The position numbers and the translations under genes were made by a program. A stretch of DNA of 32,888 nt from contig JAGOUA010000002.1 in the NCBI GenBank assembly GCA_018061485.1, forward strand, positions 1 through 32,888, written 5' to 3'. Position 1 is the first letter of the stretch, and every line of letters begins with the position of its first letter. The DNA is from Patescibacteria group bacterium (GTDB lineage Bacteria; Patescibacteriota; Patescibacteriia; 2-12-FULL-60-25). Below, one piece after another: positions 2,421-32,888 of the stretch. The notes under the pieces are model-generated. The model did no database searches. It was not told the origin of the DNA and worked only from the letters and a program-made list of their open reading frames with translations.

Positions 2421-2428
2421 ATTGCCTG

Positions 2429-5614: not shown

Positions 5615-6214
5615 CTAGCGCTGAATGATGACTGGTGTACCGATGGGCGACCACTCATACAACCGCTTCGCTACACCCACTCCGACACGAATACAGCCAC
5701 CGCTCACCGGCGTACCGAGATGCGACTCCCCTTCTTTTTTCCCTCCCGGCCATTCAGGCAGCTCATGGATGCCATAGACCGTCCCTTTAAACGCCATCCA
5801 GTTCGGCATCCAGAGCTTCGCGCGATTTGACCACGCGCGAGGATGTTTCGAGAGGACGGTAAAGGTTCCCACAGGTGTCGGCGTAGAGGCTTTTCCTGAC
5901 GAGATGCGATGCTCTTCGATCACTACCCCGCCCAACTCCTGCCGAAGCTTTTGCTCGGACAGATCTACCAACAGGCGCTTTGGGAGTTTTTTAGGCTCGG
6001 CAGAGACAGGTGAATACCCATTCGCTACCTCAAGACCGTCGCGAAACCCATCGCCATCGGTGTCAGGATTCTGGGAATCACTCCCAAACGCTCGTTCAAG
6101 CGCATCAGTCAGTCCGTCGCCATCCGCATCAGGAGCAGCGGCATGGATCGGCGAAGCGACGAGGAGAAGCCCCGCGCCAACGAGGAGAAGCACCCCTAAG
6201 ACGGAAGGGCGCAT
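5615..6214 (-). CDS. L,D-transpeptidase (YkuD domain) with N-terminal Asp-rich Ca-binding-type repeats
   Basis: Signal peptide MRPSVLGVLLLVGAGLLLVASPIHA. Thrombospondin-type-3-like repeats DADGDGLTD and DTDGDGFRDGLE. YkuD catalytic motif HELP...SHLGTPVSGGCIRV. Confidence 0.9.
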   Translation of the reverse strand: MRPSVLGVLLLVGAGLLLVASPIHAAAPDADGDGLTDALERAFGSDSQNPDTDGDGFRDGLEVANGYSPVSAEPKKLPKRLLVDLSEQKLRQELGGVVIEEHRISSGKASTPTPVGTFTVLSKHPRAWSNRAKLWMPNWMAFKGTVYGIHELPEWPGGKKEGESHLGTPVSGGCIRVGVGVAKRLYEWSPIGTPVIIQR

Positions 6215-8273: not shown

Positions 8274-9578
8274 CTATTCAGCAAAAGGAATATTCGCAGG
8301 TGGTTCAGACTTTTTGGACTCCGTCCGTCGCAAGAGCGGTGCTTTAACCTGCGTAAGGATCGGAAAGTGCCACAACGTCGCAAGCTCTTCCACCGATAGA
8401 AAAAAGGCATTGAGCCCAACCCCGTCAGAACGATCTCTAAACGCTCGAACGAGGCGCGTTTTACGAGCATCATTGCGTTCCGCCTTAAAAAACCACCAAT
8501 CATTATTCATGCCAATCTTTTTGCTATCAGGACGAAGGGATTGCATGTTAAACGTATTAAACTGACGAATCGATCCCAAAAATGGCGTCACCACTCTTGG
8601 TTTAGACATCGCTTCTTTTTTTGCGAGATAGATCACCCGCATCTTACACATAAACCCAATCTTGGACGTTTTGCGTTCGATATATTCCAACACGAGTTTT
8701 TCCCCCGGAGAAAGCAGCGTGATCTTTGGTGGACCATCTTTCTTTTTCTCGTCTTTCTTTTTTTCTCCCATCGGTAAAAAGATCCCGATAATCCCCTCGA
8801 GAATCTCCACAGGCAAAGCAAAGATCTGCGCCAGCAAGCTTGGGTCTTTAGACTTGGACTCCCCCTTGATCTTCTCGATTTCTTGTTTTGCGCGTTCTTG
8901 CGCCTCTTTTTGGTCGGTAGGCGTCAAAATCACCTGATACCACACCTGCTCACCAGGCCCGATGCGCGAAAAATTCTCAAGCATCGCCGCGAGAGGGTCT
9001 TTCATCTCACCCGACACCTGATCCGTAAAATCGGCATAGGTCTTGATGGGGTACGCGTCGGATTTTGTCGGCGTCAGCTCCGTTCCCCATAGATCATACA
9101 CTTCGTCCGGAAACTTGGTGGGCGCCATCACGGTATAATCTTCAACGACATCAATATCCGCATCAGGATACTGGGCATAGATCGCGGCCTCGACCAAATC
9201 CTTCAACCGTTTTTCGATATACAAGCGATACGATACATCGCCCTCAAGAGAAACGATTTCAATAGAAAGCGGCGATTGATGCTCGCCCTTGAACCATTTT
9301 TCTGTCCAGTTTGGCGCGGCGGCCGCTCCCGCGAAGACGGAGAAGATATTCTCGACTGCCTTGACCGTTTGCTCGGTGGTACGAGGCACGGTTACACGCA
9401 ACATGATAAAGGTTTTGCGCGCGGCGGCCTGCCCCTGCTTGTGCTCAAGCCATAACTCTCGAGCGATCCACAAAGCAATCCACAAAAAGAGAATCCATCC
9501 TCCAGAACGAAAGAGGATCCACATGCCATAGAATGGGTCGTCACCCATGGCGAGAAGGAACGCGGTGAAATCAAACAT
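8274..9578 (-). CDS. membrane protein partner of the T4CP-like ATPase (N-terminal TM hairpin, Lys-rich linker)
   Basis: 434 aa. Hydrophobic GMWILFRSGGWILFLWIALWIA, a second amphipathic stretch LLAQIFALPVEILEGIIGIFLPM, the linker KKKDEKKKD and the C-terminal motif EELATLWHFP. Its stop lies 2 nt before the ATPase start. Confidence 0.75.
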   Translation of the reverse strand: MFDFTAFLLAMGDDPFYGMWILFRSGGWILFLWIALWIARELWLEHKQGQAAARKTFIMLRVTVPRTTEQTVKAVENIFSVFAGAAAAPNWTEKWFKGEHQSPLSIEIVSLEGDVSYRLYIEKRLKDLVEAAIYAQYPDADIDVVEDYTVMAPTKFPDEVYDLWGTELTPTKSDAYPIKTYADFTDQVSGEMKDPLAAMLENFSRIGPGEQVWYQVILTPTDQKEAQERAKQEIEKIKGESKSKDPSLLAQIFALPVEILEGIIGIFLPMGEKKKDEKKKDGPPKITLLSPGEKLVLEYIERKTSKIGFMCKMRVIYLAKKEAMSKPRVVTPFLGSIRQFNTFNMQSLRPDSKKIGMNNDWWFFKAERNDARKTRLVRAFRDRSDGVGLNAFFLSVEELATLWHFPILTQVKAPLLRRTESKKSEPPANIPFAE

Positions 9579-10538: not shown

Positions 10539-12596
10539 CTAGTTCTTGGAGAGTTCACGAGATTTGAGGAACAACCATTCCCAACGAGTGAGTGCGGTTT
10601 TTGCCAAAAAGCGCAACCAGACACGACACGTCACCACCGCCGTAAAGAGGGACAGAAGAATACCGATCGCGAGCGTTAGACTAAACCCGCGAATCACCGA
10701 AGACGAGAACCAGTACAACAGCGCACACGAAATCAGCACAGTGACGTGTCCATCGCGAATCGATGGCCATGCGCGAGTAAAGGCTTCCTCCAGAGCCGTC
10801 GGAATACTCTTCCCAAGAGCAAGCTCTTCACGAAACCGCTCAAAGGCAAGGATGTTCGCGTCTACCGCAATACCCAGCGAGAGAATGAATCCGGCAATGC
10901 CCGCAAGGGTTAATGTGACCGGAATATATTTGAAGATCGCCAGAGACAAGATCGCGTAGAGTGTAAGCGCCGCAACAGCGACTAATCCTGGAACGCGATA
11001 GACTAGGAGCAGGAACAGAGCAACGAAGGCAAAGCCAATCAGTCCCGCCCGAAGCGATGCCGCAAGCGAGTCCGCTCCAAGACTTGGACCGATCGTTTGC
11101 TGAGCGATCAGCTCAACCGGCACAGGAAGCGCTCCGGCTTGCAAGCTACGGGCAAGTTCACGAGCCTCCTCGAGTGAGCCGGAGCCTGTGATCACCGCCT
11201 GACCACCTGGAATCTCGCTCTGGACAACCGGCGCCGAAATCAACTGACCGTCGATAAAGATACCGACACGCTTACCGATATTCGCCCGCGTGATCTGCGA
11301 AAAGAGCTCGCGACCTTCGTCGTTAAACTGCAACGCCACCACGACCGCGCCTGTTTGTGGATCAAAGTCGACGCGCGCCGAAGCGAGTTGCTTACCCGTA
11401 AGTGCCGTCGCCTTCCATCCATCCGCCGGTGGAAGAATATCTTCCTTTGTGAGCTTTTCAAAACGTACCACCTGTGCACGCACATCCTCTACCGAACGCT
11501 CATCTGTTTTATAGATAATGTGGTAGCCAAACGGCGTTTCGACAACGTCGGAAATAGCTCCTTTGGCGAGAGCGAAGAACGGCCCTGCGAATTCAGGCAC
11601 AAAGCGTTGCGCGTTTGGATCCGTTTCGAGAGGCGATTCTTCCGTCCAATCAAGCTCCCCCGAGGTCGAGCTTGCGTACGGTTCCATGGAACGTGTCTTC
11701 GCCAGCTCCACAAAGGTTTGCGGAGTTACCGTAGCACGCAATCCATCAATCGTGGCTTTTGCTTCTTCCTTGGTGAGATCGGAGGCTATGCCCTCAATCC
11801 CCTTCCAGGAAATCAAGATATGATGACCTTTCGCTTCTTTTGTGACCACCTTCTTTTCTTCGATGTTTGCGACAAGATACGCATCCGCCGTTTCAATCAC
11901 GCGAGGGGCGACACCCACCGCTTCACCGCGAAGAGCAAGATATTCCTCTTTACGAGCAAGATCTTCTCGCAAGAACACCGAAGGAAGCGTCGTGATACTT
12001 GGTTGAGCTTCTTTTGCCACGTTCAAAAATGATGCTCCTGGAGCGCGAGCCGCCTGAAGCAATGCTTCTGCCTTGGCTTTTGCCGCTTCGTTTTCGACAC
12101 GAATACGAGTCGCCTCATCAAGTGTTAATTCACGAGCAGGCTCTACACTCTCTTCTTTAAACTCCAAGATCGGTGTTTCTCCAATCTTTTTAATTGCTTC
12201 TTGCACGTTACTTACCCCAGCAAGCTCAACACTGACGCGCCAAGCATCACCCGCTTGCGTGGTTTGAATCACTGGCTCAGCAACGCCAAGTGCGTTAATA
12301 CGACGCTCAATAACATCACGTACACCGTTCAAAGCCTCTTGACGCTCTGCGAGAGGGATCTTGGATACATCCGCCTCGTACTCCAAACGAGATCCGCCCT
12401 GTAAATCCAATCCAAGCACAAAGGACTTGGATGATTGCTTATCGGACCAGTCATAGCCAAGCACGGATCCTGCCGTCCGAATCACCCAGTTCATTGGCTG
12501 GGGAAGAATATACACCGTAGCCAATACACCCAACAAAAGGAGCCCCAACGCCCGTCGTTGCGTGGAAGTTTTTGAGACGGTAGAAACAGTTTTCAT
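10539..12596 (-). CDS. secD: protein translocase subunit SecD with an inserted PrsA/SurA-like parvulin PPIase module
   Basis: LGLDLQGG motif, P1 head (GIFIDGQLISAPVV) and a C-terminal 6-TM block. Residues ~150-385 are an insertion containing parvulin signatures GHHILISW ... FVELAK ... FVPEF ... PFGYHIIYK. Confidence 0.93.
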   Translation of the reverse strand: MKTVSTVSKTSTQRRALGLLLLGVLATVYILPQPMNWVIRTAGSVLGYDWSDKQSSKSFVLGLDLQGGSRLEYEADVSKIPLAERQEALNGVRDVIERRINALGVAEPVIQTTQAGDAWRVSVELAGVSNVQEAIKKIGETPILEFKEESVEPARELTLDEATRIRVENEAAKAKAEALLQAARAPGASFLNVAKEAQPSITTLPSVFLREDLARKEEYLALRGEAVGVAPRVIETADAYLVANIEEKKVVTKEAKGHHILISWKGIEGIASDLTKEEAKATIDGLRATVTPQTFVELAKTRSMEPYASSTSGELDWTEESPLETDPNAQRFVPEFAGPFFALAKGAISDVVETPFGYHIIYKTDERSVEDVRAQVVRFEKLTKEDILPPADGWKATALTGKQLASARVDFDPQTGAVVVALQFNDEGRELFSQITRANIGKRVGIFIDGQLISAPVVQSEIPGGQAVITGSGSLEEARELARSLQAGALPVPVELIAQQTIGPSLGADSLAASLRAGLIGFAFVALFLLLVYRVPGLVAVAALTLYAILSLAIFKYIPVTLTLAGIAGFILSLGIAVDANILAFERFREELALGKSIPTALEEAFTRAWPSIRDGHVTVLISCALLYWFSSSVIRGFSLTLAIGILLSLFTAVVTCRVWLRFLAKTALTRWEWLFLKSRELSKN

Positions 12597-18319: not shown

Positions 18320-18757
18320 TTATGAGGCTTTGATATCCAGTTTTATCGCCGTCCCTGTCGATGAGCGCTTGGGAAACGAAATCTTGATGATTCCCTGCTC
18401 GTAGCGAGCATCTGCACGGTCTTCGATGACGGGCGTTGGCAACGGGATGCGACGAAACACCGCTCCATGTCGCACCTCTTTTCGATAGTACGTCGCTTCC
18501 TCGACCTCGGTGCGTCGCTCACTCATCGCTTTGATGGTGAGCACACCTCGATCAATCGAGAGCTCGATATTTTTTGGATCAATACCCGGCATAGGCGCTT
18601 CGACCACCACCGTTTCGCCAGATTCGTACACATCCACCGCGGGAATCAACCCCGTTTGTTGCTTTTGTGCCGAGGTGAGCGCCGAACGACTCTGTACTAG
18701 CGCATCCATGTCGTCGAACGGCTCAAACGCGAGCGGCGACCAATGAATCAGAGACAT
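18320..18757 (-). CDS. Hsp20/alpha-crystallin family small heat-shock protein
   Basis: Alpha-crystallin domain PAVDVYESGETVVVEAPMPGIDPKNIELSIDRGVLTIKA...GIIKISFPK. Start set at MSLIHWSPL (ATG 18757); the longer ORF-track form overlaps grpE. Confidence 0.9.
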   Translation of the reverse strand: MSLIHWSPLAFEPFDDMDALVQSRSALTSAQKQQTGLIPAVDVYESGETVVVEAPMPGIDPKNIELSIDRGVLTIKAMSERRTEVEEATYYRKEVRHGAVFRRIPLPTPVIEDRADARYEQGIIKISFPKRSSTGTAIKLDIKAS

Positions 18758-18774
18758 AAAACAGGTACTGAATA

Positions 18775-19332
18775 TTACGAGGCTTTTGCCACCACGACAC
18801 GAGCAGCTTGCAACACCTTCCCATGGAGCTTCCATCCCGGAGTGAGTACGCGGAGAATCGATCCTTCTGCTACTTCCGTTGAAATCTCCTGACTTACCGC
18901 CTCGTGCCATTGCGGGTCAAACGCGCCATCCGTTGGGATTGGTTCAAGACCCGCCTGCTGAGCAGCTTGCTCCCACAAGGTTTGAATCGCCTTCACCCCC
19001 ACAAGCCACTGATCCCACGAGCGCTTCGCCTCTTCAGGAAGGGCTTCGGTCGAAGGAAGAAACCGCATCGCGTACGAAAATTGATCCAACGCGGGCAAAA
19101 GCTCTCGCAATAGCCGCTCATTCGCAAAGCGCGTGAGCGAAGAACGTTGCTCCTCCATATCGCGTTGCAAGTTTTTGTAGTCCGCCTGCGCGCGCTTCCA
19201 TCCAGCGAGATACTCTTCGCATCGTTGCTCGAGGGAAGATTGCGCGCCGGACGAGACCTCGCTCTCGTTCATAGCAGGAGCTTCTTGCTCTGCAGGTTGT
19301 TGGTTTTGGGTGTCATCCATAGAAGAAAGCAT
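18775..19332 (-). CDS. grpE: nucleotide exchange factor GrpE
   Basis: Acidic N-terminus, then YLAGWKRAQADYKNLQRD, LLPALDQF and HEAVSQE...V.PGWKLHGKVLQAARVVV. The ATG at 19332 overlaps the hrcA stop by 1 nt (TAATG); an alternative ATG lies at 19320. Confidence 0.9.
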   Translation of the reverse strand: MLSSMDDTQNQQPAEQEAPAMNESEVSSGAQSSLEQRCEEYLAGWKRAQADYKNLQRDMEEQRSSLTRFANERLLRELLPALDQFSYAMRFLPSTEALPEEAKRSWDQWLVGVKAIQTLWEQAAQQAGLEPIPTDGAFDPQWHEAVSQEISTEVAEGSILRVLTPGWKLHGKVLQAARVVVAKAS

Positions 19333-20024
19333 TACAAAGTAAGTAGCGGAAGGATAAGCGAAAGAAGATCGTGCGTGCGTCGATACGGCATGCGAAGCGG
19401 GCCAAGTGCCCCAATACACACGCCATCAACCTCACCATACACCGTGGAGCAACTTGCTCCGAAGGGGCTTTCTGTCCCGATCAGGCGTTTGGGCGTAGAC
19501 CCAGCCCCCTCGAGACGTTGGACCGCTTCATCTAAGCGATCGAGTACCTCGGAGAGTGAGACGACTCGTTGCCAATCACGAAACTCCGGCTGAGCAAAGA
19601 GCGCTGAAAGCCCCGTATAGTACAGATCATTCGGTCCAAAACGGACAAAACAGGCAACCCCGAGATCTTCGACCATGGCCTTGGCAAACGCCTTGGCGCG
19701 AGGGGCTCGATCTGGATACGCCTCACCGAGGCGGTGATACGTCTCACGATCTTGCTCGCTTGAGGACGTCACCCAAGGCGCCGTCAAGACCACTCGATAG
19801 CCTGCCTCTGTAGGAATACGTCCACCCGAGGTATGGGGCTGTTCAAGGAGTCCCAACTCGTCCAAATCCGCGAACCAGTTACGAATCGTCGCCGAACTCA
19901 CGGAAAATCGCCCCGTATCCACCAACGTTTGGGACCCAACCGGCTGCGCCGTCTCTTGATAGACCTCAACAACCGCTTGGAGCAACTGCTCAAGGCGAGG
20001 ATCGAGGGGAAAAGGGGTCGTCAT
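19332..20024 (-). CDS. hrcA: heat-inducible transcription repressor HrcA (short form, about 230 aa)
   Basis: N-terminal wHTH: [27 protein letters not shown]...[35 protein letters not shown]. Start set at MTTPFPLD (ATG 20024) because the ORF-track extension would translate through the CIRCE operator. Confidence 0.85.
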
Positions 20025-20190: not shown

Positions 20191-21171
20191 ATGCGGACCG
20201 ACTCCCGTCAGCGTATTCTCGCGTTTTTGCAAGCAAACGGCCGCACCAGCGCCCATCTTCTAGCGCAGCATCTGAGTATTACTCCGCAGGCCGTGTTTCG
20301 ACATCTGAAACACCTACAACAAGCTCAGATTATTAAAAAAATTGGCGCCTCTCCGAAGACCTACTACGAACTCGATACGCGCCCATCCCCTTCTACGGAA
20401 ACATCGCTCGATCCAGCAACCCATACCCTTATAGAGCAGGAGTTTCTTCGTATTACACCCGACGGCCTTCTTGAGCAGGGCGTGCATGCCTTTGTGCATT
20501 GGTGCGAAAAACGACATCTTCCTGTCGAAAAAACAGCTCGAGACTACGTGGAGAGCATGCGAAAATTCGCTCGCTACAAAACACCCGATGGGCTGATTGA
20601 CGGCCTGCCCAAATTTCAAAAAACATTCCCTCATACGTATCCAAACCATGTCTATTACTTGGATTTTTACAGTATTGAGCGATTCGGCAAGACAAAACTC
20701 GGCGAACTCTTGCTCTATGCAAAACAAAGTCAAAACGCTTCGATGATGAAACTCGTTGTACAAGAAGTTCGAGAGCGAATCCTTCGCCTTATTCAACGCT
20801 TCGAGATTGATGCTATCTGTTTTGCACCCCCTACCATCAAGCGCGAAGTCCAATTTATGAAAGTTCTTGAACGAGAATTGCACCTACCTATACGCGTTAT
20901 TCCCGTCACAAAAATCAAAACCCCCATCATCGTTCCTCAAAAAACCCTCACAAAACTCGAAGATCGTATAGAAAATGCAAACACCACCATGCATATCGAG
21001 GCCACAGCACCAGCCAAACACGTTCTCGTTATTGACGATGCTATCGGTTCGGGGGCGACGCTCAATAGCCTTGCTCGACAACTAAAAGAGCGCGGCATTG
21101 CCACCGAAAGCGTAACCGGACTCGCTATCACTGGAAGTTTTAACGGCTTTGACGTGATTCAAGAAGTCTAA
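20191..21171 (+). CDS. winged-HTH domain fused to a ComF-like phosphoribosyltransferase domain
   Basis: N-terminus RQRILAFLQANGRTSAHLLAQHLSITPQAVFRHLKHLQQAQIIKK (ArsR/DeoR-like wHTH). C-terminal PRTase PRPP loop HVLVIDDAIGSGATLNSLARQL. Confidence 0.85.
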   Translation: MRTDSRQRILAFLQANGRTSAHLLAQHLSITPQAVFRHLKHLQQAQIIKKIGASPKTYYELDTRPSPSTETSLDPATHTLIEQEFLRITPDGLLEQGVHAFVHWCEKRHLPVEKTARDYVESMRKFARYKTPDGLIDGLPKFQKTFPHTYPNHVYYLDFYSIERFGKTKLGELLLYAKQSQNASMMKLVVQEVRERILRLIQRFEIDAICFAPPTIKREVQFMKVLERELHLPIRVIPVTKIKTPIIVPQKTLTKLEDRIENANTTMHIEATAPAKHVLVIDDAIGSGATLNSLARQLKERGIATESVTGLAITGSFNGFDVIQEV

Positions 21172-22537: not shown

Positions 22538-22581
22538 GAAATCACAAACAAACACCCCCGCATCGTGCATCGATACGGGGG
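22538..22581 (-). terminator. intrinsic terminator downstream of the giant gene
   Basis: On the minus strand: CCCCCGTATCG-atgca-CGATGCGGGGG (6+4 bp stem, 1 mismatch) followed by TGTTTGTTTGTGATTTC. The hairpin lies ~175 nt after the giant-gene stop. Confidence 0.55.
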
Positions 22582-22755
22582 CGTTCTACTAAGGGTAGGG
22601 CTTTCACATTTGGATGGCGCCCTGCGTAGCTTTAGCAAAGAAGGGTGAGATGCGAAGCGCTGAAGCAAGAACCACCAGAAGCGCACTACTAAGCGCGGTG
22701 AGACTGGTTCGTAGCGACACTCGAGCAGGTCACCAAAGGCGGAAGCCCTAAGGCG

Positions 22756-25700
22756 TTACCGACGCGGTCGGAGCTGAAGCGATCCAGGAAACACGATCCA
22801 TGGACGATAGTCACGAGCATCTGATCCTGCGCGAACAGCTCCTCCTTGCAATTGTAGATTTCCTTGCGGATAACTCTGTGAACACTCCATAGCTCCGTTC
22901 AGAGCCGTTGGGGAAGATCCCGCGGTATTCAACCGAGTCATGCTAGACCCATCGTTTCCAACAAGCGGAGAATAACATCCTCCATAAGCATGCCGGACGT
23001 AAGAATTTGGAGCATCGCTCAGCATCTCACCGGTCTTTATGGTGCGACACTCACCCGAACACCAACCCCAGTTATCCTGCAAGAAGACTCTTGGCGTATA
23101 GCGACACGCGTTGTTTTGTGCGTCCCAACACCCTCCTGCTGGCGCGAGACCGGCTTGGATACACCGATCACCCGCCGCACAGTCGTTATCCGCTCGACAG
23201 AAGCGCGAAGGATCTTGTGAACAGCGCGCTTGTGTCGCCGTCGGCAACACCGTCGTCACAGCCACAGGACCACAGCTTGCACCCGTCACCGAAGAACCAA
23301 GCGCAAGATACGATCCAGCACCAAATCGCGCATCATAGGCCGCCTGGCAATCTGCGGTCACCGTACAGGTCGGTCGAGTATTGCCAAACGCGTCATAAAT
23401 CAAGGAATCAGCACCGCCGAAATAACACGTCCCCGCACGAACTCCAATAGCTTCGTAATCCACAGACGCCCCACCGCTCGCAAGGTTCTGCCCCGTACAG
23501 CTTGGCAACGTCTGTTGGGCGTTAGCAGGACAGGTGTACACGTGCGAGAACTCGAACGGACTCGCTTCACACGCTTCGCCGCTATTGCCAAAGAAGCTGC
23601 GGAAGGTACAGGTGTCTTGCGTGCCATCAGTGCGACAATCGCTGTCCTGACCACACACGATGTGTGGTTTATCTTTACAACTTCCCATCGGACGACATGC
23701 CTGCGCCGACAACGGACAATCGCTATCCGATTGACAGGTCAACCCCGTAAAGCGACTCGTTGGTGAATAACATTCTTTTTGGACACTGCAGAACGGCTTA
23801 CGGTTCTTGAGCTTGACGTCGTCGAAGGACTGCACAAACCCATCTCCCCAATCCACCGCCAAGCGTCGAAGCGCCATTTGCTCATGCGCCGCCCAGCCAA
23901 AGAACTTGATCGTCGAACGCTGCTGACCACCCACCACATTCAGAATGCCTTGCGTTACCCCATTAAAGCTGAACACGTCGAGCTCCTGCACCGGACAGCT
24001 TGCCCCCGTTGGACAGCTGGTCGCCGGTGCCGCGATCCGCGGCGGTCGAGGGGTGTAGTAATCGATGTATTGATAGCTTGATTCAGACACCCCTAGTAGA
24101 CCAAGGTAAGACGGAGTGTAGTGACCAAGCGTCACATCCGTAGGAAGACGAGTGCCCGCCGAGCGAAGTGAGGCATCAACATCTCCTCGCTCACCCCTTG
24201 CATCCACTACCCGCATATCGTACGCCCTTAATCCACAGAATTCGTTACGCGGATCTGAGCACAGCTGAGTATCCGGCACATATCCTATTTCGGCAGTACA
24301 GCGATTATTGTCCGTGTTCTTATTGCGACGATTTTCTTGAACTTCACCAACATTCCAATAATCTACCGCTGTCTGGCCAGCACCACGCCCACCCGGAAGC
24401 ACGCAGAAAGGCGATGGGATGCTATTTACAACCGATAATACCTCTGTCCGTGAAACCCCTGGCGCAAAATCAGCAACAGGCTCACATCTGTCAGACGCCC
24501 GACACACTCCCCCTGCGAGACAGCCGACCGTCCCCTCTCCTGTACATTGCCGAGAAGGATCATTGCTACACGTTCTACCCGAAGAAGAAACCACACCGCA
24601 CGATTGTGCCTGCTCCCACTGAGTATATCGCCATGCATTACGAGTATTCTGCGTAACTACAAGACAGCTGCGACCAGCTCGATTACCGGCAGAGCTCGGA
24701 CAGACCCCCGTTTGAGCCGCATACTGATACCCAGTTGTATATTGCTCACAAGCACCGACGGTATACCGAGCTCGCAACGGTGACTGCGTATCGCTAGCCG
24801 TTACACTTTGAAGCGAAACCACCTGCGCCCCTGGAAATCTATCCAATTCTGAAATCCTTGTTTCAATGGTGATTCCGGCTACCTCGGTACGTTCTATCGG
24901 TGTTGCAGATATCGTATACGTACGACCGAGCTCAGCGTCCAAGAAGGTACAGGGACCGTTTTCACATGTTCGACTCGTAACAGACCACTGATCATGCCTT
25001 GCAACCCTCACTGCACCCACTCTCCCATCAACATAATAATCGCTCGATGACTGATACCTGCCAGCATTCTTCCAAAAATGCTCTGCCGTAAAGGAGCAAT
25101 CCGTATCCATGTAGCACTGCACGTCTGTCTCAGCGTTTACTACAGCCGGCCTTGAGACCGCGGCCGCCCAGGATACCCTACACCTACCCGGGGTAAGACC
25201 ATTTCTCCCTACACAGGTACCGCTAACCTCAAGAGGACAATCTACTGATACACCCTCCGTCGGTCTTGTGCAATAAAGCGTTTCAGCTGGGATATTTCGA
25301 GAAGCAGAATCTGCGACAAGCCCCACTTGAACAACGCGAGGAGACCCTCCTGCTTGACCGGCGGATGAGGATCCTGGCTCTGGATACGTATCCAAGACCT
25401 CTGTTGTAGCGCTTAAGGAAGTAAGTCGAACAGCTCCAGAGGCGCAGCGGAAGGCCCCCAATTTTGCCGCGTCCTCAACACGTAGAGGGCCTCGAGTTTC
25501 GCCCGCCTTAATATACTGCCCTGATGAATTCACACTCCATCCTTCGGAAGCATTAATATTACACGCTGTCAGCAACGGAACTGGGGACCTAGCCGTCGTT
25601 CTTCTGTCAAGAGCAGCCGTGTGACACGTAGTTGATTCAGCGTTCCCACAGCTTGCTCCAGCGTTAATACCAGACAACGCGTTACAGGCAAATACGGATG

Positions 25701-28700
25701 TCGGAACAGTTGTATCGCAGCCAACGTCCGCGGACGAGACTCGACAATCCACACTTGGGCCCGCATTCTGAGTCGCACCGCTAGGCAAAGCGTCTGGTAC
25801 GCACTTTCTCCCTTCAAACGGACCAGTTGCGCAGACTCTATCGTTATACCCAATAGCCTGCTCATTGTATTTATACACCCTATAGATACGAGCGAAGACG
25901 TTTGTGAGATACCCGTATTTATCCTTAGGCGCATTTTCCGTAACAGGTCCAAAATAAGTCGATCGACCAGAAGCAAGGAATACTGGCGGATTAAGCGCAG
26001 AAACGCCAGCGATTCTGCCGCCGCTTTGATACAGAGGATCGGCTCCGGCGGATCGAGTATTGAGCGCACTGGAGAATGGAGCAAACGTTTCATTGCGCTT
26101 GATATTTAGTACCGGAATTGTGTATTTTGATTCTTGCCATACACGGTCGGTAAAAGCAGCGTCTTGACCCGTTTCCGATGATCGTACTTCAGCAATCTCT
26201 TTACAAATATCAGCCGTACTCACCTTGATATTCATGTAGATGAAGCGATTATCCGTTACCGCTTGACCGGCGCAGGTAGAAACCCAAAAACCTGTTAATC
26301 GCCATGGACCGCGTATATCCCTCGACGTACGCTGACTAGGATCTCCAGATTGATTTGCGTCAGGAGACTGGAATACTGCTCGGATAGCGTAGTACGGCTT
26401 ATCAGAGGCGCAAGACTCGTAATAGGGTGATCCGCTCAAGTCATTGAAGCTCGCCGTCGCGCCACGATCACCTGAGAAAGCCTCAAACTTTCGCTTATCC
26501 GTTGAACGATAGCCGATTTCCCAGGTTTTGAAGTAGCAGCTATCTCCAGGAGCTGGCTCCGCCTGCAAACCAATACCCGTACTATCTGATAAGTTGACAC
26601 AGTCGCCTCGATACGGACTTCCGTCTGGAAGAGTCATTAACTTCTCTGATCCCCGAGTAAGATACGTAGAGATGTCTGGCTCAGCATAAAAAGCTTGCTG
26701 CCATCTTGCATCCTGTTGCTTAATTTCGTCGATATCAGAGTAGTCTCTAACAGTTACACCATCTACCCAATCCTCTTGATAGCCACACGCTAGACGACCA
26801 ATACCATTAGGGTTTTTAAACGGCTTGATCTCGATAAAGCTAAAATTCTGCTCATTTACACCCTCTGCAAGACTGGCTAGCGTCTCAGATCCCTTAACGG
26901 CTAAAGCAAACTGCCTTGCTCGAATAGAGTAAAATGCTTCCGCGTAGTTCCTTCCCTCCCCTCTACCGGTAGCTACGAGGCGAAGAGCCCATGGATCCGC
27001 GTCATATCCCCCGTCATCCTGATGATCGTCGGCATCTTCACACTGAACCGCTGCCGTACTCCCACGCGGAAGAGCCGAATCAAAGTATGCTCCTCGCTCA
27101 TTCCCATCAGCTCCAAAAACACCCGTATCATCAGACACAAAGTCATCATCATAATCCAATCTACTTACAGGTACACTCTTAAAATAAGCAGCGTCAAGAT
27201 TAAAGGATACAGGATTCTTGGTTCGAGCCGTGCAGTAATACTGACCCGAGTTTTGCGGAGGAAAGTACCCGGCCGTATCGACATAGTGATACGGATCGTT
27301 CCGCCCACCGATCACCGGCGAAGGATTCCACGTCAAACAGCTGTAGACCTCCTCACCCAATGGACCACGTGCACGCGTTGTGTCGTATTCAAGACACGCC
27401 CCCTCGACGCCGCGAACAATTTCGGCGCGTTCAAACGCCACACATCGGCCACCGCCCGTCAGTGGACCACAGGACTGGGCGTTATTTGCCGCCTCAGCGA
27501 TACGCGCTGATGTCGAAGTAGAATTCGAGACGTTAAACACTTCGGACGGCAGACACGCCTGACCATCACGAGGACCGCCAACACAGATTCCTGGAGGAAC
27601 CGCTTGAGAATCGGCCGCAAAGAAGAGCGGGCTTCCGCTGCCTGAGTAGGTCACACGCTTATACGAACAGAAGCACTCTTCACCATAGGCGCAGGTATTC
27701 GCGCTCGAGAAACCAGCCTTATTCCCCTGTGGGCGAACGGGGTTCTTACTCATGTCCCACGAAGTCACTACGCTGGTTGGATACGGAGCGTCCGCCTCAG
27801 GATACGCGCGACACATCGTGCGTGGGTACGCCTGATCAAGCACCAAATCTTGCGTATCAGCCCCACTTACGCCCAATTTCGCTTGAAGTGCAGCAAACGA
27901 CGTCGCCGCTTCAGCACTTGTGAATGGGAGATAACAGTTTAGCGGAACTCCTTCTCGAGCCTCATTCACGACATAATAGCCCATCATTCCCGTCCCCCTG
28001 TGACGACATAATCCGATGTCTCTTCTCGATAGGTTAATGTAGAGAGCAACGTTGGTATCTCGAGGCAACATCTCTGCCTCGTTTGCCTGCGTTGGAGCAA
28101 GAAGATGACGCGCACGATCTCCACGAGTAACACTCGAAACGTTCACCGGCGGCATGCTCACCGCCACAACAAGACGCTTATCCTTTGCGTTCGCCGCTTC
28201 GCCCGTCAGAAGATCCGCACTCACCGAACGCGAGACCAGGTCTGTTACCTGAAAACTCTGCGGAATCGTGTAACCAGCGTAATCACGTCCACCGATACCC
28301 GTTGGGCGACTGGTGTACGTAGCCGCATCAAAGAAGACCCCTTTCGCCAACACCGGCTCGGTACTGGTTGAGGCGCGGTTGACGTAGTTCGTACAGAACG
28401 ATCCTCCGCTGGTTGCTTCGCCTGCCTTGTCACACAAGGCCACCTGCGTACACAGCTCTTTATAACGATTTGTCGCTGGATCGTACACCGTTTCTCCTGA
28501 AGCACACCCAAGCCACTGCGCGCAATCACGATCCATTTTTACCTTCACCACCAAGTTTGCGTCATTCAGAGACGTCTCGCCCACGCTTCCACCGAGAGAC
28601 AATACGCTACCACTCACCAAGCTTCTACCCGTACTACTAACGATGCTTGATGTACCGCGAGACGCTGTACACCCTGGTTGAGACGCATCGCGCGCGCAGT

Positions 28701-31700
28701 CTACCGGCGTGACGGATTGGAGATTATTTTGTCGATAAGCAGCATCCGTGGCACGCGCGCTATACAGAAGCCGAGCATCAGACATGGCTCGCACAAGCAC
28801 ACAACCACGCGCTGGATCGACCTGACCGTTACAGGAACGCGTATCAATACGGTTGTCGTAGATAAAGTGGTACGAACGGCCCGTCGCCCCCGCCGCCGTA
28901 TCCATCGGATCGCGGAACTCCGTACATTCGGCCTGTTCTACAGGACACGTACCCGCCCAGCCTGCATATCCAGGCGCTGGAACCGCATCCCCGGTACGGA
29001 GCATCAAGAAGATCTGTCCGCTCGCAAGGGCATTTGGATAACATGGGGTATTCTCTCCCTTCACAAACCATCCACCGTACGTACCGGCGGGCACACCCGC
29101 CACACCGCTCACCGGAACCTGCGTACGATATTCACACACATGATTTTGCGGATCTTTAAAGTACTCACGACCGGCTGCGGTGGTGAATTCTTCACAGAAG
29201 AGTTCTGATGGACGGCACAAGCCTTCGCCATACTTGGTGACGTCATCTTTTAGGTACACCGTTTCGTAACGATCTACCGAAGCGCGATCCTTCGAGAAGA
29301 CCGGTTTACCAAAGGCGCGACAGCTCGCGTTTTCAGCGTTACATCGCTTAGATGGCTCGTCGATCAGATAGACATACCGGTCGCCAAGGGCACGCGTCAC
29401 CGAAGGGCCTGCTCCATCTTGCAGAGTAAAGGTCTGATCGTACGGACTCGTAGAGTTACGCGTATCGATAAACTGCTTACAACCGATAGCCGCTGGACGA
29501 CACAACTGGCTAAATTGACGGACTTGGACCGCCTGACCGGCACGATTTTGATATTCACGACACCCAACCATCGCTTGAGGCTCTGGAACGCCATAGGCGT
29601 TCTGATCACATTGCGCAGGGGTATTCCACGTATTGCGACGCACGAACGCCACATCGCGAATCTGCAAGACAGAGACTTCATCCAAGAAGAATGCCACCGG
29701 CGTTGCTGTTGGACCCGCCACCGTAAAGTTGAGACGCGACTTCGCTCCTACTTGCCCGTTAAAGAGTCCGAGGTTCACCTGCTGCCACTCGGTGGTGACA
29801 CGCACCGTTCCCACGGACTGTGGATTCGTGTTCCCTTCTGTCGCGACTTGTACACCAAGCGATGTAGGCGCACTTCCTTTCATCCAAAACGACACACGAT
29901 ACAAGCCCGTGGCGGTACTTGGAAACGCCATCGAGATGGTCCGACTTTCCGCCGCAGGAGCGTCCACGCGATACGAACGATCGCCCACCAAAATAGACTC
30001 GGTGGATTGTGTTGCTCCCGTAATATCAGACGTAATATCTCCCGTCGCACGGAACACGCTCAAGGTATTTCCCGCCTCGGCACCTGCATACGCACGACAC
30101 CCCGCCGCTTCTACGCGACACGAGCGACTCTCTGGCGCATAGGCTTGATACAGACAGGAGTTGTCGTTGGACTGATACACGCCGCCCGTCTTGGCACAGT
30201 CATCTTGATTCGACGCGCTCAAGCGGTACTGACGACAGTCTTCCGTGGACAACACGGTTTGCGAGTAGTAGCGGTAAAATACGCCGCCATCAGCGTTGTA
30301 GAATTGACGACAGTCTGGATCTGTCCCCGTACGCCAAGCGTCTTCGTTACAACCGTTTGGTGCTTTTTGCGAAAAGAGATCTCCTGAGCGTTTAACCACA
30401 ATGCGAGGCGCGCTCGCTGTCGTGATCGCTGCTCCTTCCGGAGGGACGTCTCCCGGCTTGCTATCCGTGCGCTTTTTTAAGCTCCATGTACGCAACTGGT
30501 ATCCCGTTGAATCCGAACCCTCCCACGTAAAGTAGGTATCCGTGTCAGAGGATGGCTGCTCACAAAACCGTAAGCTCGCGAAGGCCGCTTGAGACTCGCC
30601 TCCTTGCGCAGCACTGTCTGCAACCGTAAATACCTCACAACCCACCTCTTCTTGCGAACATTGTTGCGCTGTACTTGGAATAAAGTAGTCTGCACGAGGC
30701 TCGGAAGCGTCGTTAAAGTCTGGCGTCTCGCTCTTCACCAAGTCAAACGAAGAAGCAAGCTTGCGGTATTCAGCATACCCAACACACGCGGCTGGACAAA
30801 AGTCTCCCGAGCCAACCTGCGCCGCGAGCTCTGGAAAACCGCCCGATGTGTCGGTATACCCTTCACACCCCGCCTCAGACTGACGACACACCTTCGCGAA
30901 GTTCGCACACGATGGAGGATCTGTTTCAGCGCCTGTACACGCAAAATCATCTGGAGCGATCTTGATTGTGCTCGCTGCAAGGGTGGTATTCAGGCCGTTC
31001 ACGTACGGAGCAGCCACCGATCCCTCTTCGAGCTGAACCGCATCCACCAGGGTATTTGCCCCTTGAATAACGATTTCTCCCGCGCGCGTCGAGGCATTTG
31101 CGGTAAACGAACACTGAATACGTGCCCAAGATGTGCCGTTCGCATTCTGTAACGCCGCGCCCAAGATATGGTCTGTGCTTGGACCAGACGCTCCAAAGAT
31201 CTCACAGTCTCGCGTACGAAAATCTGTCGCGATCTGTGTTCGCGTGATTGGGGAAGTGCGAGCAATCGCATCGGCTCGCGTTGGATACTGACGAATACCG
31301 ATCGATCCCTTTGGCGTTGCGCCGCTCTCATCCAATACGCGCACAAACCCGGACACCACATAGGTTCGCCCCGGCGTCATGTCGACGACTTGCGTAAAGC
31401 CAGACGTGAATCCACCAGCAAAATGCGCGGCGGTGGCGCCATCAGCGGTTGCTTCACCCGCTGGAACCGTCGCACGAAGAAAACCTCGATCCGTTCCAAC
31501 GAGTGGCGACCACGCGTCCATCAACCCTTGATCCGTCGTTCGATCTTCAAAAGAGGGGTTTTTTATGACATTCAAAGAACTCTCACCCAAACGTGTCGCA
31601 AGAACGCGCGTACATCCTTCGCCCGAAGCCTCACAAGATTCGAGCGTGCTATCAAAGTACACACGATCTCCCGTAGTCGCCGTGCCGATCCAGGCATCCG

Positions 31701-32888
31701 ATCGCCCACCAGACGTGTCGCGAGACGTTGCATACCACAAACATCCAACGTTATCTTGAGAACAACGTCCGTAGTCCAACGTATTGCGCAAGTATGACAC
31801 CTGTTCGTTCGTGCGGCTGGTATACGCTCGGCAACTCGCAAAATTCGCCGAACACTCGTTTGCGCCAAAGCGATAGACGGTTTTTTCTGCGACACACTGA
31901 CCATAGCCACCGATACACTCACCCGCGTCATTGCGACGAAGACAGGTCTGAATGTCCTGGCACTCTTCGCGACGCTGTGGCAAGCCGTTTCCTAAAGCTG
32001 TTTCGCCAAATCCCGTTAATGCACATTGCTGCGGCATCATGGTGAGCGCCCAGTTTGGATCGATCAACTTACACCACGGATGCGCGTTATCTTTTTCGCC
32101 GCGCTCGTTACATTGCGTAAAACCATCTACCACCTCGCCCAACGTGACACACCCTTCGCTTCCGCCACAGCGTTGGACGTTTTTTGGATCGTTTGCCGCA
32201 AACTCAAAACCCGCCGGCAAGATGCGCATCGCCCGCATTTTCTTGAGGTTCCCTGAGCAGTATCCATAGGTGTAGCACAATGGATCGCGTTCTTCACGCG
32301 TGTTGCTCGATGGATACAGCTTCCAATCCGCCTTGAGATACCCACGTTCGATCGCTTCACGAATCGTGAACATGCCAGAATCCCCGGAAGAGCGCAGCGC
32401 CTGACCGAGGCCTTCATCCATCGTACAGTTCCACGTTCCGCGCGCTTCTGGACACGACTGCAATTCCGTCAACACTTCGTACGAACGCTGCTGGAACAGA
32501 CTTGGTGTACGCAAACTAATATTCGCTTTACGAAGATCCTCGCGATTTGGCGCAAGCAAATCATCTGGATTATTCACCGAAGCAAAGCGACGCGCCGAAA
32601 AATCAAACATGTCCAACCCTTCAGACATAATTCTCCCGAGCATCTTGGACGAAAGCGTGTTCACGAACACCGATCCGGTATACACCGCGATCATGTGCAC
32701 CGAACGCAAGCTGAGAGCGCTCGAAAGAATGGCTTGATTGATTTGATGTTGCGTGGTTTTTGGCTGCTTCACAAACTGCTCGTTCACCTCTTCACGAATC
32801 GTCGCCGAAGGGGTGCGGATACGTCCCGAGACAATATCCCGCAACGACTGATAGCCCTGACCCTCTTTTCGATCTTGTGCCGCCGTTT
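22756..32888 (-). CDS. giant Cys-rich secreted/surface multidomain protein (at least 3,376 aa), 5'-truncated by the window edge
   Basis: The single ORF stops at 22756. The M at 32844 in the ORF track is a TTG codon, and the frame stays open for 14 more codons (..TAAQDRKEGQGYQS) to the window end. It contains two CBM4_9-like jelly-roll modules (NPSFED...VDAVQLEEG; LYRVSFWMKG...FFLDEVSVLQI), a PKD-like VDWGDG...HVY segment, about 136 Cys and no TM segment in the visible part. Confidence 0.9.
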   Translation of the reverse strand, partial: TAAQDRKEGQGYQSLRDIVSGRIRTPSATIREEVNEQFVKQPKTTQHQINQAILSSALSLRSVHMIAVYTGSVFVNTLSSKMLGRIMSEGLDMFDFSARRFASVNNPDDLLAPNREDLRKANISLRTPSLFQQRSYEVLTELQSCPEARGTWNCTMDEGLGQALRSSGDSGMFTIREAIERGYLKADWKLYPSSNTREERDPLCYTYGYCSGNLKKMRAMRILPAGFEFAANDPKNVQRCGGSEGCVTLGEVVDGFTQCNERGEKDNAHPWCKLIDPNWALTMMPQQCALTGFGETALGNGLPQRREECQDIQTCLRRNDAGECIGGYGQCVAEKTVYRFGANECSANFASCRAYTSRTNEQVSYLRNTLDYGRCSQDNVGCLWYATSRDTSGGRSDAWIGTATTGDRVYFDSTLESCEASGEGCTRVLATRLGESSLNVIKNPSFEDRTTDQGLMDAWSPLVGTDRGFLRATVPAGEATADGATAAHFAGGFTSGFTQVVDMTPGRTYVVSGFVRVLDESGATPKGSIGIRQYPTRADAIARTSPITRTQIATDFRTRDCEIFGASGPSTDHILGAALQNANGTSWARIQCSFTANASTRAGEIVIQGANTLVDAVQLEEGSVAAPYVNGLNTTLAASTIKIAPDDFACTGAETDPPSCANFAKVCRQSEAGCEGYTDTSGGFPELAAQVGSGDFCPAACVGYAEYRKLASSFDLVKSETPDFNDASEPRADYFIPSTAQQCSQEEVGCEVFTVADSAAQGGESQAAFASLRFCEQPSSDTDTYFTWEGSDSTGYQLRTWSLKKRTDSKPGDVPPEGAAITTASAPRIVVKRSGDLFSQKAPNGCNEDAWRTGTDPDCRQFYNADGGVFYRYYSQTVLSTEDCRQYRLSASNQDDCAKTGGVYQSNDNSCLYQAYAPESRSCRVEAAGCRAYAGAEAGNTLSVFRATGDITSDITGATQSTESILVGDRSYRVDAPAAESRTISMAFPSTATGLYRVSFWMKGSAPTSLGVQVATEGNTNPQSVGTVRVTTEWQQVNLGLFNGQVGAKSRLNFTVAGPTATPVAFFLDEVSVLQIRDVAFVRRNTWNTPAQCDQNAYGVPEPQAMVGCREYQNRAGQAVQVRQFSQLCRPAAIGCKQFIDTRNSTSPYDQTFTLQDGAGPSVTRALGDRYVYLIDEPSKRCNAENASCRAFGKPVFSKDRASVDRYETVYLKDDVTKYGEGLCRPSELFCEEFTTAAGREYFKDPQNHVCEYRTQVPVSGVAGVPAGTYGGWFVKGENTPCYPNALASGQIFLMLRTGDAVPAPGYAGWAGTCPVEQAECTEFRDPMDTAAGATGRSYHFIYDNRIDTRSCNGQVDPARGCVLVRAMSDARLLYSARATDAAYRQNNLQSVTPVDCARDASQPGCTASRGTSSIVSSTGRSLVSGSVLSLGGSVGETSLNDANLVVKVKMDRDCAQWLGCASGETVYDPATNRYKELCTQVALCDKAGEATSGGSFCTNYVNRASTSTEPVLAKGVFFDAATYTSRPTGIGGRDYAGYTIPQSFQVTDLVSRSVSADLLTGEAANAKDKRLVVAVSMPPVNVSSVTRGDRARHLLAPTQANEAEMLPRDTNVALYINLSRRDIGLCRHRGTGMMGYYVVNEAREGVPLNCYLPFTSAEAATSFAALQAKLGVSGADTQDLVLDQAYPRTMCRAYPEADAPYPTSVVTSWDMSKNPVRPQGNKAGFSSANTCAYGEECFCSYKRVTYSGSGSPLFFAADSQAVPPGICVGGPRDGQACLPSEVFNVSNSTSTSARIAEAANNAQSCGPLTGGGRCVAFERAEIVRGVEGACLEYDTTRARGPLGEEVYSCLTWNPSPVIGGRNDPYHYVDTAGYFPPQNSGQYYCTARTKNPVSFNLDAAYFKSVPVSRLDYDDDFVSDDTGVFGADGNERGAYFDSALPRGSTAAVQCEDADDHQDDGGYDADPWALRLVATGRGEGRNYAEAFYSIRARQFALAVKGSETLASLAEGVNEQNFSFIEIKPFKNPNGIGRLACGYQEDWVDGVTVRDYSDIDEIKQQDARWQQAFYAEPDISTYLTRGSEKLMTLPDGSPYRGDCVNLSDSTGIGLQAEPAPGDSCYFKTWEIGYRSTDKRKFEAFSGDRGATASFNDLSGSPYYESCASDKPYYAIRAVFQSPDANQSGDPSQRTSRDIRGPWRLTGFWVSTCAGQAVTDNRFIYMNIKVSTADICKEIAEVRSSETGQDAAFTDRVWQESKYTIPVLNIKRNETFAPFSSALNTRSAGADPLYQSGGRIAGVSALNPPVFLASGRSTYFGPVTENAPKDKYGYLTNVFARIYRVYKYNEQAIGYNDRVCATGPFEGRKCVPDALPSGATQNAGPSVDCRVSSADVGCDTTVPTSVFACNALSGINAGASCGNAESTTCHTAALDRRTTARSPVPLLTACNINASEGWSVNSSGQYIKAGETRGPLRVEDAAKLGAFRCASGAVRLTSLSATTEVLDTYPEPGSSSAGQAGGSPRVVQVGLVADSASRNIPAETLYCTRPTEGVSVDCPLEVSGTCVGRNGLTPGRCRVSWAAAVSRPAVVNAETDVQCYMDTDCSFTAEHFWKNAGRYQSSSDYYVDGRVGAVRVARHDQWSVTSRTCENGPCTFLDAELGRTYTISATPIERTEVAGITIETRISELDRFPGAQVVSLQSVTASDTQSPLRARYTVGACEQYTTGYQYAAQTGVCPSSAGNRAGRSCLVVTQNTRNAWRYTQWEQAQSCGVVSSSGRTCSNDPSRQCTGEGTVGCLAGGVCRASDRCEPVADFAPGVSRTEVLSVVNSIPSPFCVLPGGRGAGQTAVDYWNVGEVQENRRNKNTDNNRCTAEIGYVPDTQLCSDPRNEFCGLRAYDMRVVDARGERGDVDASLRSAGTRLPTDVTLGHYTPSYLGLLGVSESSYQYIDYYTPRPPRIAAPATSCPTGASCPVQELDVFSFNGVTQGILNVVGGQQRSTIKFFGWAAHEQMALRRLAVDWGDGFVQSFDDVKLKNRKPFCSVQKECYSPTSRFTGLTCQSDSDCPLSAQACRPMGSCKDKPHIVCGQDSDCRTDGTQDTCTFRSFFGNSGEACEASPFEFSHVYTCPANAQQTLPSCTGQNLASGGASVDYEAIGVRAGTCYFGGADSLIYDAFGNTRPTCTVTADCQAAYDARFGAGSYLALGSSVTGASCGPVAVTTVLPTATQARCSQDPSRFCRADNDCAAGDRCIQAGLAPAGGCWDAQNNACRYTPRVFLQDNWGWCSGECRTIKTGEMLSDAPNSYVRHAYGGCYSPLVGNDGSSMTRLNTAGSSPTALNGAMECSQSYPQGNLQLQGGAVRAGSDARDYRPWIVFPGSLQLRPRR

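Follow-up and report, generated by a model that had tools for sequence, protein, structure and literature searches.

A giant cysteine-rich exported protein of Uhrbacteria-type Patescibacteria with a conserved upstream partner: candidate subunit of a cell-surface complex

Large, cysteine-rich, strain-variable extracellular proteins have been described in Peribacteria, a lineage of the candidate phyla radiation (CPR), with a proposed role in attachment (PMC4736985). The gene analyzed here occupies the minus strand from 22756 to 32888 in a 32,888-nucleotide stretch of DNA from a Patescibacteria group bacterium (contig JAGOUA010000002.1; this whole stretch is the window), and encodes most of a giant protein of the same general kind, which we read, tentatively, as one subunit of a cell-surface complex. 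Like the Peribacteria proteins, the giant protein is very large, carries a signal peptide, is rich in Cys, varies between strains and has no functional annotation, a comparison made by description and not by sequence homology. The Peribacteria proteins belong to another lineage, have about 1,655 aa with about 7% Cys and are encoded in a 14-gene array, whereas the giant protein has about 3,600 aa, usually occurs once per genome and has an obligate partner that combines a transmembrane helix with TSP3 repeats. The general kind, large Cys-rich surface proteins of CPR bacteria, is already known but uncharacterized. A literature search found only general statements on such proteins (PMC4736985) and no description of the giant family, of its upstream TSP3 partner or of the mosaic cassettes reported below; we regard the partner and the cassettes as new.

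Giant adhesins such as RTX/LapA, Embp/Ebh and the 7,651-aa protein of Mobiluncus (PMC10619420) are the largest proteins of their proteomes, are extracellular, contain intramolecular cross-links and are presumed to serve attachment, features that the giant protein would share. They differ from it in their long arrays of Ig-like or FIVAR repeats and in their type I secretion (T1SS), RTX or LPXTG signals, whereas the giant protein has no repeats at the BLAST level, none of these signals and mostly unmatched folds, and its retention at the cell would depend on a separate membrane protein. Searches with Pfam for Big, Ig and FIVAR repeats gave no match in the window protein or in 13 diverse family members. 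By functional analogy only, the arrangement also recalls archaeal SlaA/SlaB, in which the large outer subunit is encoded beside a small stalk subunit held in the membrane; the anchor of SlaB is C-terminal, there is no kinship in sequence or structure, and the giant protein is Cys-rich and bacterial. Finally, carbohydrate-binding modules (CBMs) of families 4, 9 and 16 are normally attached to glycoside hydrolases or lyases. The giant protein resembles these families (PF02018; structures 1gui and 2zey) in two modules, the first by predicted structure and the second by sequence profile, but it has no detectable catalytic domain, and the modules make up less than 10% of its chain.

According to the list of open reading frames (ORFs) and the frame-1 translation of 22756-32886, the minus strand of 22756-32888 holds a single open frame of 3,376 codons that ends at a stop codon at 22756-22758, contains no internal stop and is still open at the window edge, 32888. 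An earlier reading of the window, made from its sequence only, had described it in this way; the chance of a stop-free run this long in random DNA of 54% GC is about 1e-61. The TTG start listed at 32844 is internal, an artefact that the same reading had recognized: the 14 codons 5' of it (TAAQDRKEGQGYQS) are open and align with residues 228-241 of a full-length orthologue, P0001 (3,603 aa), which places the N-terminus outside the window, 227 residues further. The window thus holds 3,376 of about 3,603 codons, with the first ~227, signal peptide included, lying past the edge. P0001 is 98% identical to the window protein, with 80 residue differences, and collinear over all 3,376 residues, and a codon-level comparison of the two gave dS 0.26, dN 0.013 and dN/dS 0.05, so that the giant gene is intact and under strong purifying selection. 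An assembly artefact or a decaying pseudogene, that is, a chimeric or frameshift-masked ORF, is extremely improbable: nothing beyond the unusual length speaks for it, equal architecture and length recur in well over 100 independent assemblies, and the collinear orthologue and its dN/dS argue against it as well. Split ORFs exist in a few relatives (L012, L027 and L028), none in the window gene. The sequence-only reading had considered that the frame might fall apart into several genes; instead, more than 100 homologues have the same length.

The hand count of about 136 cysteines proved exact. The window protein contains 136 Cys (4.03%), present in every 200-residue bin, compared to a mean of 0.73% in 18 neighbouring proteins, and P0001 holds 138. 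In alignments of 36-59 homologues almost all cysteines are invariant, and on this ground they are taken as structural; in the exported protein the cysteines would form disulfides, expected to number roughly 69. The protein has a mass of about 380 kDa and an acidic pI of 5.2.

That the product is extracellular, as had been proposed, is supported by the N-terminus of P0001, MDHPSSHLSFGKRALLAFASLGILLGGTLPMSAQA followed by QLGG, which shows the basic n-region, hydrophobic core and AxA cleavage site (after ...MSAQA, before Q) of a classical Sec signal peptide. A signal peptide with an AxA site was present in all 60 family members inspected, and none of the 60 had a lipobox, a transmembrane segment, an LPXTG signal or an RTX motif. 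No transmembrane segment was detected in the window protein (19-residue hydropathy windows reached at most 1.36), and the 227 N-terminal residues supplied by P0001 add the signal peptide and no transmembrane anchor, in agreement with the earlier statement that a hydrophobic anchor is missing. The combination of a Sec signal peptide with the lack of a lipobox, transmembrane segment, LPXTG or RTX motif indicates that the giant protein is a Sec substrate that is not itself anchored, either covalently or in the membrane. At the other end, the protein closes with a strand motif, which is RPW[IV]V[FY]PGS[LI]QLR among close-clade proteins and DPWVYYDGxIxVxP among distant ones; a few variable residues trail it, so that the ends of the 60 members read ...PGSLQLRxxx or ...DGxIxVxP. 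Peptidoglycan anchoring of the Lpp type through a C-terminal Lys, considered on account of the VanW and YkuD genes nearby, was rejected, as the C-terminal residues are not conserved.

The giant proteins form a large family. A word-indexed protein search returned 155 homologues, almost all of 2,800-3,900 aa; those with a name are 'hypothetical protein' of Candidatus Uhrbacteria, Candidatus Magasanikbacteria or 'Patescibacteria group bacterium'. Scanning a single genome of each GTDB species yielded 232 coding stretches. With a profile of the N-terminal domain, an exhaustive search of 1.84 billion cluster representatives (50% identity clusters) gave 1,308 proteins at E<=1e-3; of these, 1,136 pass E<=1e-10 and 476 pass E<=1e-30. 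Among the best 150 of these matches most have 2,500-3,900 aa with the domain at residues ~40-350, and the shorter matches are probably fragments. By these sequence searches the giant proteins are a large, coherent family without a curated family model. The relatives are Patescibacteria on contigs of 0.76-1.24 Mb, in line with the small-genome organism that had been presumed, and at such sizes the giant gene takes up about 1% of a genome. Two loci, L016 and L059, come from the same metagenome-assembled genome (MAG; JALNYW01), where a different contig carries a second, divergent and partial copy (~36% identity), to be explained by paralogy or by contamination of the bin. Many MAG records in the series L007-L077 carry a Patescibacteria-type locus under the label 'uncultured Gammaproteobacteria bacterium', and one under 'Candidatus Methylomirabilis', which are probably placeholder names or mis-binned sequences.

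Directly upstream of the giant gene, on the same strand, a gene for a product of 220-290 aa was found in 52 of 52 loci (those with an examinable upstream flank, after clustering), and it is also present in a Magasanikbacteria locus reached by profile search only (E 5e-43). The gap between the two genes is 4-34 bp, with a median of 7 bp, a tight spacing that suggests co-translation. For the window gene the position of this partner falls past the edge at 32888; an example is L001:9281-9988. In the partner, a short N-terminus on the cytoplasmic side leads into a single transmembrane helix; two TSP3 repeats follow, then a linker rich in Pro, Ser and Thr and a helical segment that is conserved, and the last residue is almost always proline. 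The transmembrane helix and the linker were read from the sequences, and the repeats are of the bacterial Ca-binding type (Pfam PF18884, E ~1e-7), ending in a CPxGxxC loop. We infer from this layout that the giant subunit is held by the partner, which would be its membrane-anchored stalk or dock. The wider setting is one of housekeeping, envelope and export genes: among 72 loci, the recurrent upstream neighbours are VanW (49, usually divergent), Hsp20 (45), TrxB (30), TrxA (22) and IF2 (16), and the downstream ones NusA (27), YidC (22) and SecD (15), giving the conserved order IF2-TrxAB-VanW-Hsp20, then partner and giant gene, then NusA-YidC-SecDF.

Comparison of close strains revealed a mosaic. 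P0001 and P0002 are 77% identical overall, with the identity very unevenly spread. Between their loci, L001 and L078, nucleotide identity is 86-98% in the flanking genes and in the codons for residues 1-1800, 1900-2100 and 3200-3300, falls to 46-65% for residues 1801-1900 (cassette V1) and 2101-3100 (cassette V2), and is 58-77% for residues 3301-3600 (V3). Third codon positions in V1 and V2 are near saturation, which makes these segments far older than their surroundings, the signature of cassette exchange by recombination. The pattern indicates that in close strains divergent alleles of the giant gene recombine, as would be expected of a structure exposed to hosts, phages or competitors. Across the family, P0001 residues 2650-3050 are variable in both length and sequence.

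The features of the giant gene, with the evidence for each, are as follows; all lie on the minus strand, and AF2 denotes AlphaFold2.

22756-32888, minus: giant ORF (ORF list, translation, orthologue P0001, dN/dS)
32518-32888, minus: C-terminal third of the N-terminal helical domain (P0001 ~40-350; alignment; the rest is outside the window)
32038-32460, minus: compact, mostly helical domain with conserved Cys pairs (P0001 370-510; AF2 pLDDT ~80-90)
31588-32025, minus: Cys block 1, Cys-x6-Cys-x2-[YF] units (P0001 515-660; motif scans; cysteines invariant; AF2 low confidence)
30988-31575, minus: jelly roll 1, CBM-like (P0001 ~665-860, window aa ~438-633; AF2 pLDDT ~80 and Foldseek)
30088-30960, minus: Cys block 2, Cys-x6-Cys units (P0001 870-1160; motif scans)
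29707-30069, minus: jelly roll 2, CBM_4_9 (window aa 940-1060, P0001 1167-1287; Pfam PF02018)
28768-29670, minus: Cys block 3, Cys-x6-Cys units (P0001 1300-1600; motif scans)
27331-28263, minus: block X, mixed beta/alpha (window aa ~1542-1852; AF2 pLDDT 70-88; contains V1)
27868-28167, minus: cassette V1 (P0001 1801-1900; inside block X; mosaic analysis)
24268-27267, minus: cassette V2 (P0001 2101-3100; contains block Y, the best-modelled domain)
26221-27213, minus: block Y (window aa ~1892-2222; AF2 pLDDT 80-96; inside V2)
22759-24270, minus: C-terminal Cys-dense region (P0001 3100-3603; alignments; contains the partly variable V3)

Both carbohydrate-binding-type jelly rolls named in the sequence-only reading were recovered. 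With the CBM_4_9 model, whose curated cut-off is 25.9 bits, jelly roll 2 scores 40 bits (E 6e-10) in the window protein and 43.3 bits (E 6e-11) in P0001; the domain is detected in 10 of 13 diverse family members, and a PDB profile search matched it to the laminarinase CBM4 1gui (E 7e-5). Jelly roll 1 was seen through its AF2 model, for which Foldseek returned CBM16 2zey (E 9e-5), a porphyran CBM, 8xmz, and CBM4 1gui, with TM scores of 0.65-0.74 against CBM16 and CBM4; its profile match in the PDB, to 4d0q, is weak (E 0.01). Both jelly rolls are thus predicted to be of carbohydrate-binding type. The PKD-like unit (WGDG...HVYTC) did not hold up: PKD models (PF00801/PF18911) gave no match on window aa 2843-3376 even at E<=10, and there was no PDB profile match. 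A distant member, P0095, does have two genuine PKD domains, at residues 715-882, in place of jelly roll 1, which makes the slot of jelly roll 1 modular.

The remainder of the chain is largely without relatives, as had been noted earlier. Searches of Pfam and NCBIfam with the window protein and the 13 diverse members left CBM_4_9 as the sole recurrent domain, so more than 90% of the giant chain matches no curated family; PDB searches with the whole protein and with profiles of three 1,200-aa tiles gave weak CBM matches only; and self-BLAST found no internal repeats, with only the short Cys-x6-Cys-x2-[YF] motif recurring. About 12 copies of the unit Y...C-x6-C-x2-[YF] are spread over the three Cys blocks, which AF2 did not resolve, and the Cys-x6-Cys units are read from their sequence as putative disulfide-stapled hairpins. 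The N-terminal domain (P0001 40-350) bears the motif NAxQxFxGQxAYDAAxYIAxGGKGQ and is predicted by AF2, with low confidence, to form long helices. Neither profile searches nor Foldseek found a PDB relative of the compact domain at P0001 370-510. The AF2 model of P0001 1-1200 had a mean pLDDT of 52 and yielded only the CBM in Foldseek, and that of window aa 1433-2433 contained two confident blocks, X and Y, with no Foldseek match at E<=1e-3 (best 0.18 in the PDB and 0.03 in BFVD); with these two libraries, the modelled blocks X and Y are provisionally without known structural relatives. Foldseek on AF2 models, a check that had been proposed, was thus informative for jelly roll 1 and gave nothing significant for the two blocks. 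The last ~500 residues are Cys-dense and conserved, with the motifs WGDG...HxYTC and DNWGWC(T/S)GEC and the terminal RPW[IV]V[FY]PGS[LI]QLR strand; within this region, which neither Pfam nor the PDB profiles matched, the C-terminal ~100 aa are conserved family-wide.

Downstream of the giant gene lie two features, the second being its neighbour on the opposite strand:

22550-22586, minus: terminator-like hairpin with a T-rich tail (16 pairs, 9 of them G-C; consensus match only), 170 nt 3' of the giant-gene stop codon
21366-22361, plus: gene for a Cys-rich lipoprotein, convergent with the giant gene (lipobox LVGC, 21 Cys, 6.3%)

The lipoprotein gene had been described as convergent with the giant gene and as horizontally acquired. 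The convergence stands. A recent horizontal acquisition is unsupported, because L002, L011, L014, L028 and L032 have homologues with 25-30% identity (E 1e-13 to 1e-30) in this same convergent position, despite the odd GC content of the gene (0.649, vs 0.48-0.58, or about 0.53, in its neighbours). Elsewhere the homologues are weaker, and distant loci lack the gene; the check on orthologues and synteny thus found orthologues of the giant protein, with the lipoprotein syntenic in closer relatives only. From this distribution the lipoprotein, which matches no Pfam family, appears as a fast-evolving, clade-specific companion inherited with the locus. No similarity to the giant protein was found for either the lipoprotein or the partner.

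The other genes in the window encode MnmA, a radical-SAM protein, a DD-carboxypeptidase, a YkuD L,D-transpeptidase with TSP3, a VirD4/TrwB-like ATPase, SecF, SecD, YidC, NusA, DnaJ, DUF6941, DnaK, Hsp20, GrpE and HrcA. In the YkuD protein (5615-6214, minus) bacterial TSP3 repeats lie between the N-terminal region and the catalytic domain, and the partner uses the same Ca-binding repeat, a hint that the two share a module for targeting to the envelope. The genes at 6217-8271 and 8274-9578 (minus), flanked by those for YkuD and SecF, encode a VirD4/TrwB-type coupling ATPase and a 434-aa protein without family, which may be a remnant or minimal module of the type IV secretion system (T4SS) kind; the coupling-protein gene was considered as part of the giant system and rejected, as it is not syntenic in other loci. 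The periplasmic region of SecD (10539-12596, minus) is interrupted by a peptidyl-prolyl isomerase (rotamase) domain of the PPIC type, an unusual fusion of export and folding functions that is also seen in the relative L004. The longest-ORF calls for Hsp20 and GrpE (18320-18910 and 18775-19419, minus) overlap by ~135 nt; as the calls in L001 are shorter, 145 and 181 aa, the true starts probably lie inside these ORFs. The gene at 20191-21171 (plus), kept beside hrcA in L001, encodes an N-terminal winged-helix HTH and a weakly phosphoribosyltransferase-like C-terminus.

What the giant protein does has to be weighed from these observations. We favour, at slightly less than an even chance, that it is the large subunit of a two-component cell-surface complex of Uhrbacteria-type Patescibacteria which acts as an adhesin or host-recognition structure. 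In such a complex the partner would cross the wall as a stalk anchored in the membrane and keep the giant subunit attached to the cell surface; this subunit would be made rigid by its disulfides, many of them stapling the Cys-x6-Cys hairpins; the CBM modules would contact external glycans, most plausibly those of the envelope of a host or neighbour cell; and the strain-variable cassettes V1-V3, mainly in the C-terminal third, would set or diversify specificity, or evade phage and other antagonists. Most CPR bacteria are thought to live attached to other cells and, outside Saccharibacteria, the molecules at the CPR cell-cell interface are, to our knowledge, essentially unknown. An adhesin on the surface, or a structure for interaction with a host, had already been proposed in the sequence-only reading. 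The proposal is reasonable and gains strength from the cassettes that vary between strains and from the obligate partner with its membrane anchor, and a core envelope or surface-layer (S-layer)-like role fits about as well. Several observations weigh against an adhesin held by a stalk. Unlike typical adhesins, the giant protein is not repetitive, hardly varies in length and occurs throughout the loci examined in Uhrbacteria and Magasanikbacteria. Mirror-tree and partial-correlation analysis of the partner against 200-aa tiles of the giant protein gave partial r <=0.32 and singled out no docking region. As to the disulfides, none of the oxidative-folding genes that had been suggested as a check (DsbA, DsbB, VKOR) was seen in the ~60 kb examined, and the thioredoxin of the neighbourhood is an ordinary cytoplasmic WCGPC TrxA, paired with TrxB. 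The AF2 models, moreover, were built on alignments of 23-35 sequences, and two thirds of the protein are modelled poorly or not at all.

Under a core envelope role, which we hold to be rather unlikely, the giant protein would be a scaffold or an S-layer-like canopy or lattice with the partner as its stalk, in the manner of SlaA/SlaB, and would serve housekeeping and not primarily adhesion. This agrees with the two-gene arrangement in every locus examined, with the conserved length, the acidic pI of 5.2 and the conserved housekeeping, envelope and export neighbourhood, and with the strong purifying selection on a backbone that carries variable exposed cassettes, as S-layer cassettes of other bacteria do. 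In 2015 Luef and colleagues reportedly saw, by cryo-TEM, a distinct surface layer on ultra-small groundwater CPR cells, whose protein was not identified, and this too would count in its favour. However, S-layer proteins are typically Cys-poor and of 40-200 kDa, compared to 4% Cys and ~380 kDa here, no SLH, CWB2 or other S-layer anchoring domain was found by Pfam in the 13 members, and a second divergent copy is possible in some genomes (L016, L059). An improbable alternative is a released enzyme or toxin, with CBMs that would direct an unrecognized catalytic or lytic domain to its target, a polysaccharide or the cell wall of a host. The usual company of CBM4/9/16 modules, glycoside hydrolases or lyases, would suit it, an active site could hide in the large conserved blocks without a known fold, and a preprint reportedly links giant genes of predatory Omnitrophota to cell-wall degradation (bioRxiv 10.1101/2023.11.21.568195). 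Yet Pfam, NCBIfam, PDB profiles and Foldseek found no catalytic, peptidase, RHS/YD or toxin family, in keeping with the earlier remark that no enzymatic motif is recognizable, and the obligate membrane partner argues for retention at the cell; on these two grounds the alternative is disfavoured. In addition, the C-terminus is conserved and not polymorphic, and no immunity-like gene is consistently adjacent, the lipoprotein occurring in the close clade only. Membership in an already characterized adhesin or RHS/toxin family, which the sequence-only reading had left possible, is likewise not borne out: no such family was matched, RHS/YD repeats in particular gave no Pfam or NCBIfam match, and the variable region is mostly internal.

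In its widest form, the surface-complex reading would make the partner-giant pair the main surface structure of a large Patescibacteria branch, either the surface layer of ultra-small CPR cells or a host-attachment organelle, built almost entirely of disulfide-stapled folds without known structural relatives and with recombining cassettes that determine host range or phage resistance; we consider this unlikely. CPR bacteria, or Patescibacteria, account for a large share of bacterial diversity. A gene that claims about 1% of a genome of ~1 Mb, that purifying selection strongly maintains and that is conserved with its partner over more than a thousand sequence clusters is a prime candidate for the structure by which Uhrbacteria-type cells build their envelope or attach. 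It also offers handles, namely a two-gene module, two expressible CBM modules and confidently modelled domains without known relatives, and its variable cassettes may be used as strain or host-range markers in metagenomes.

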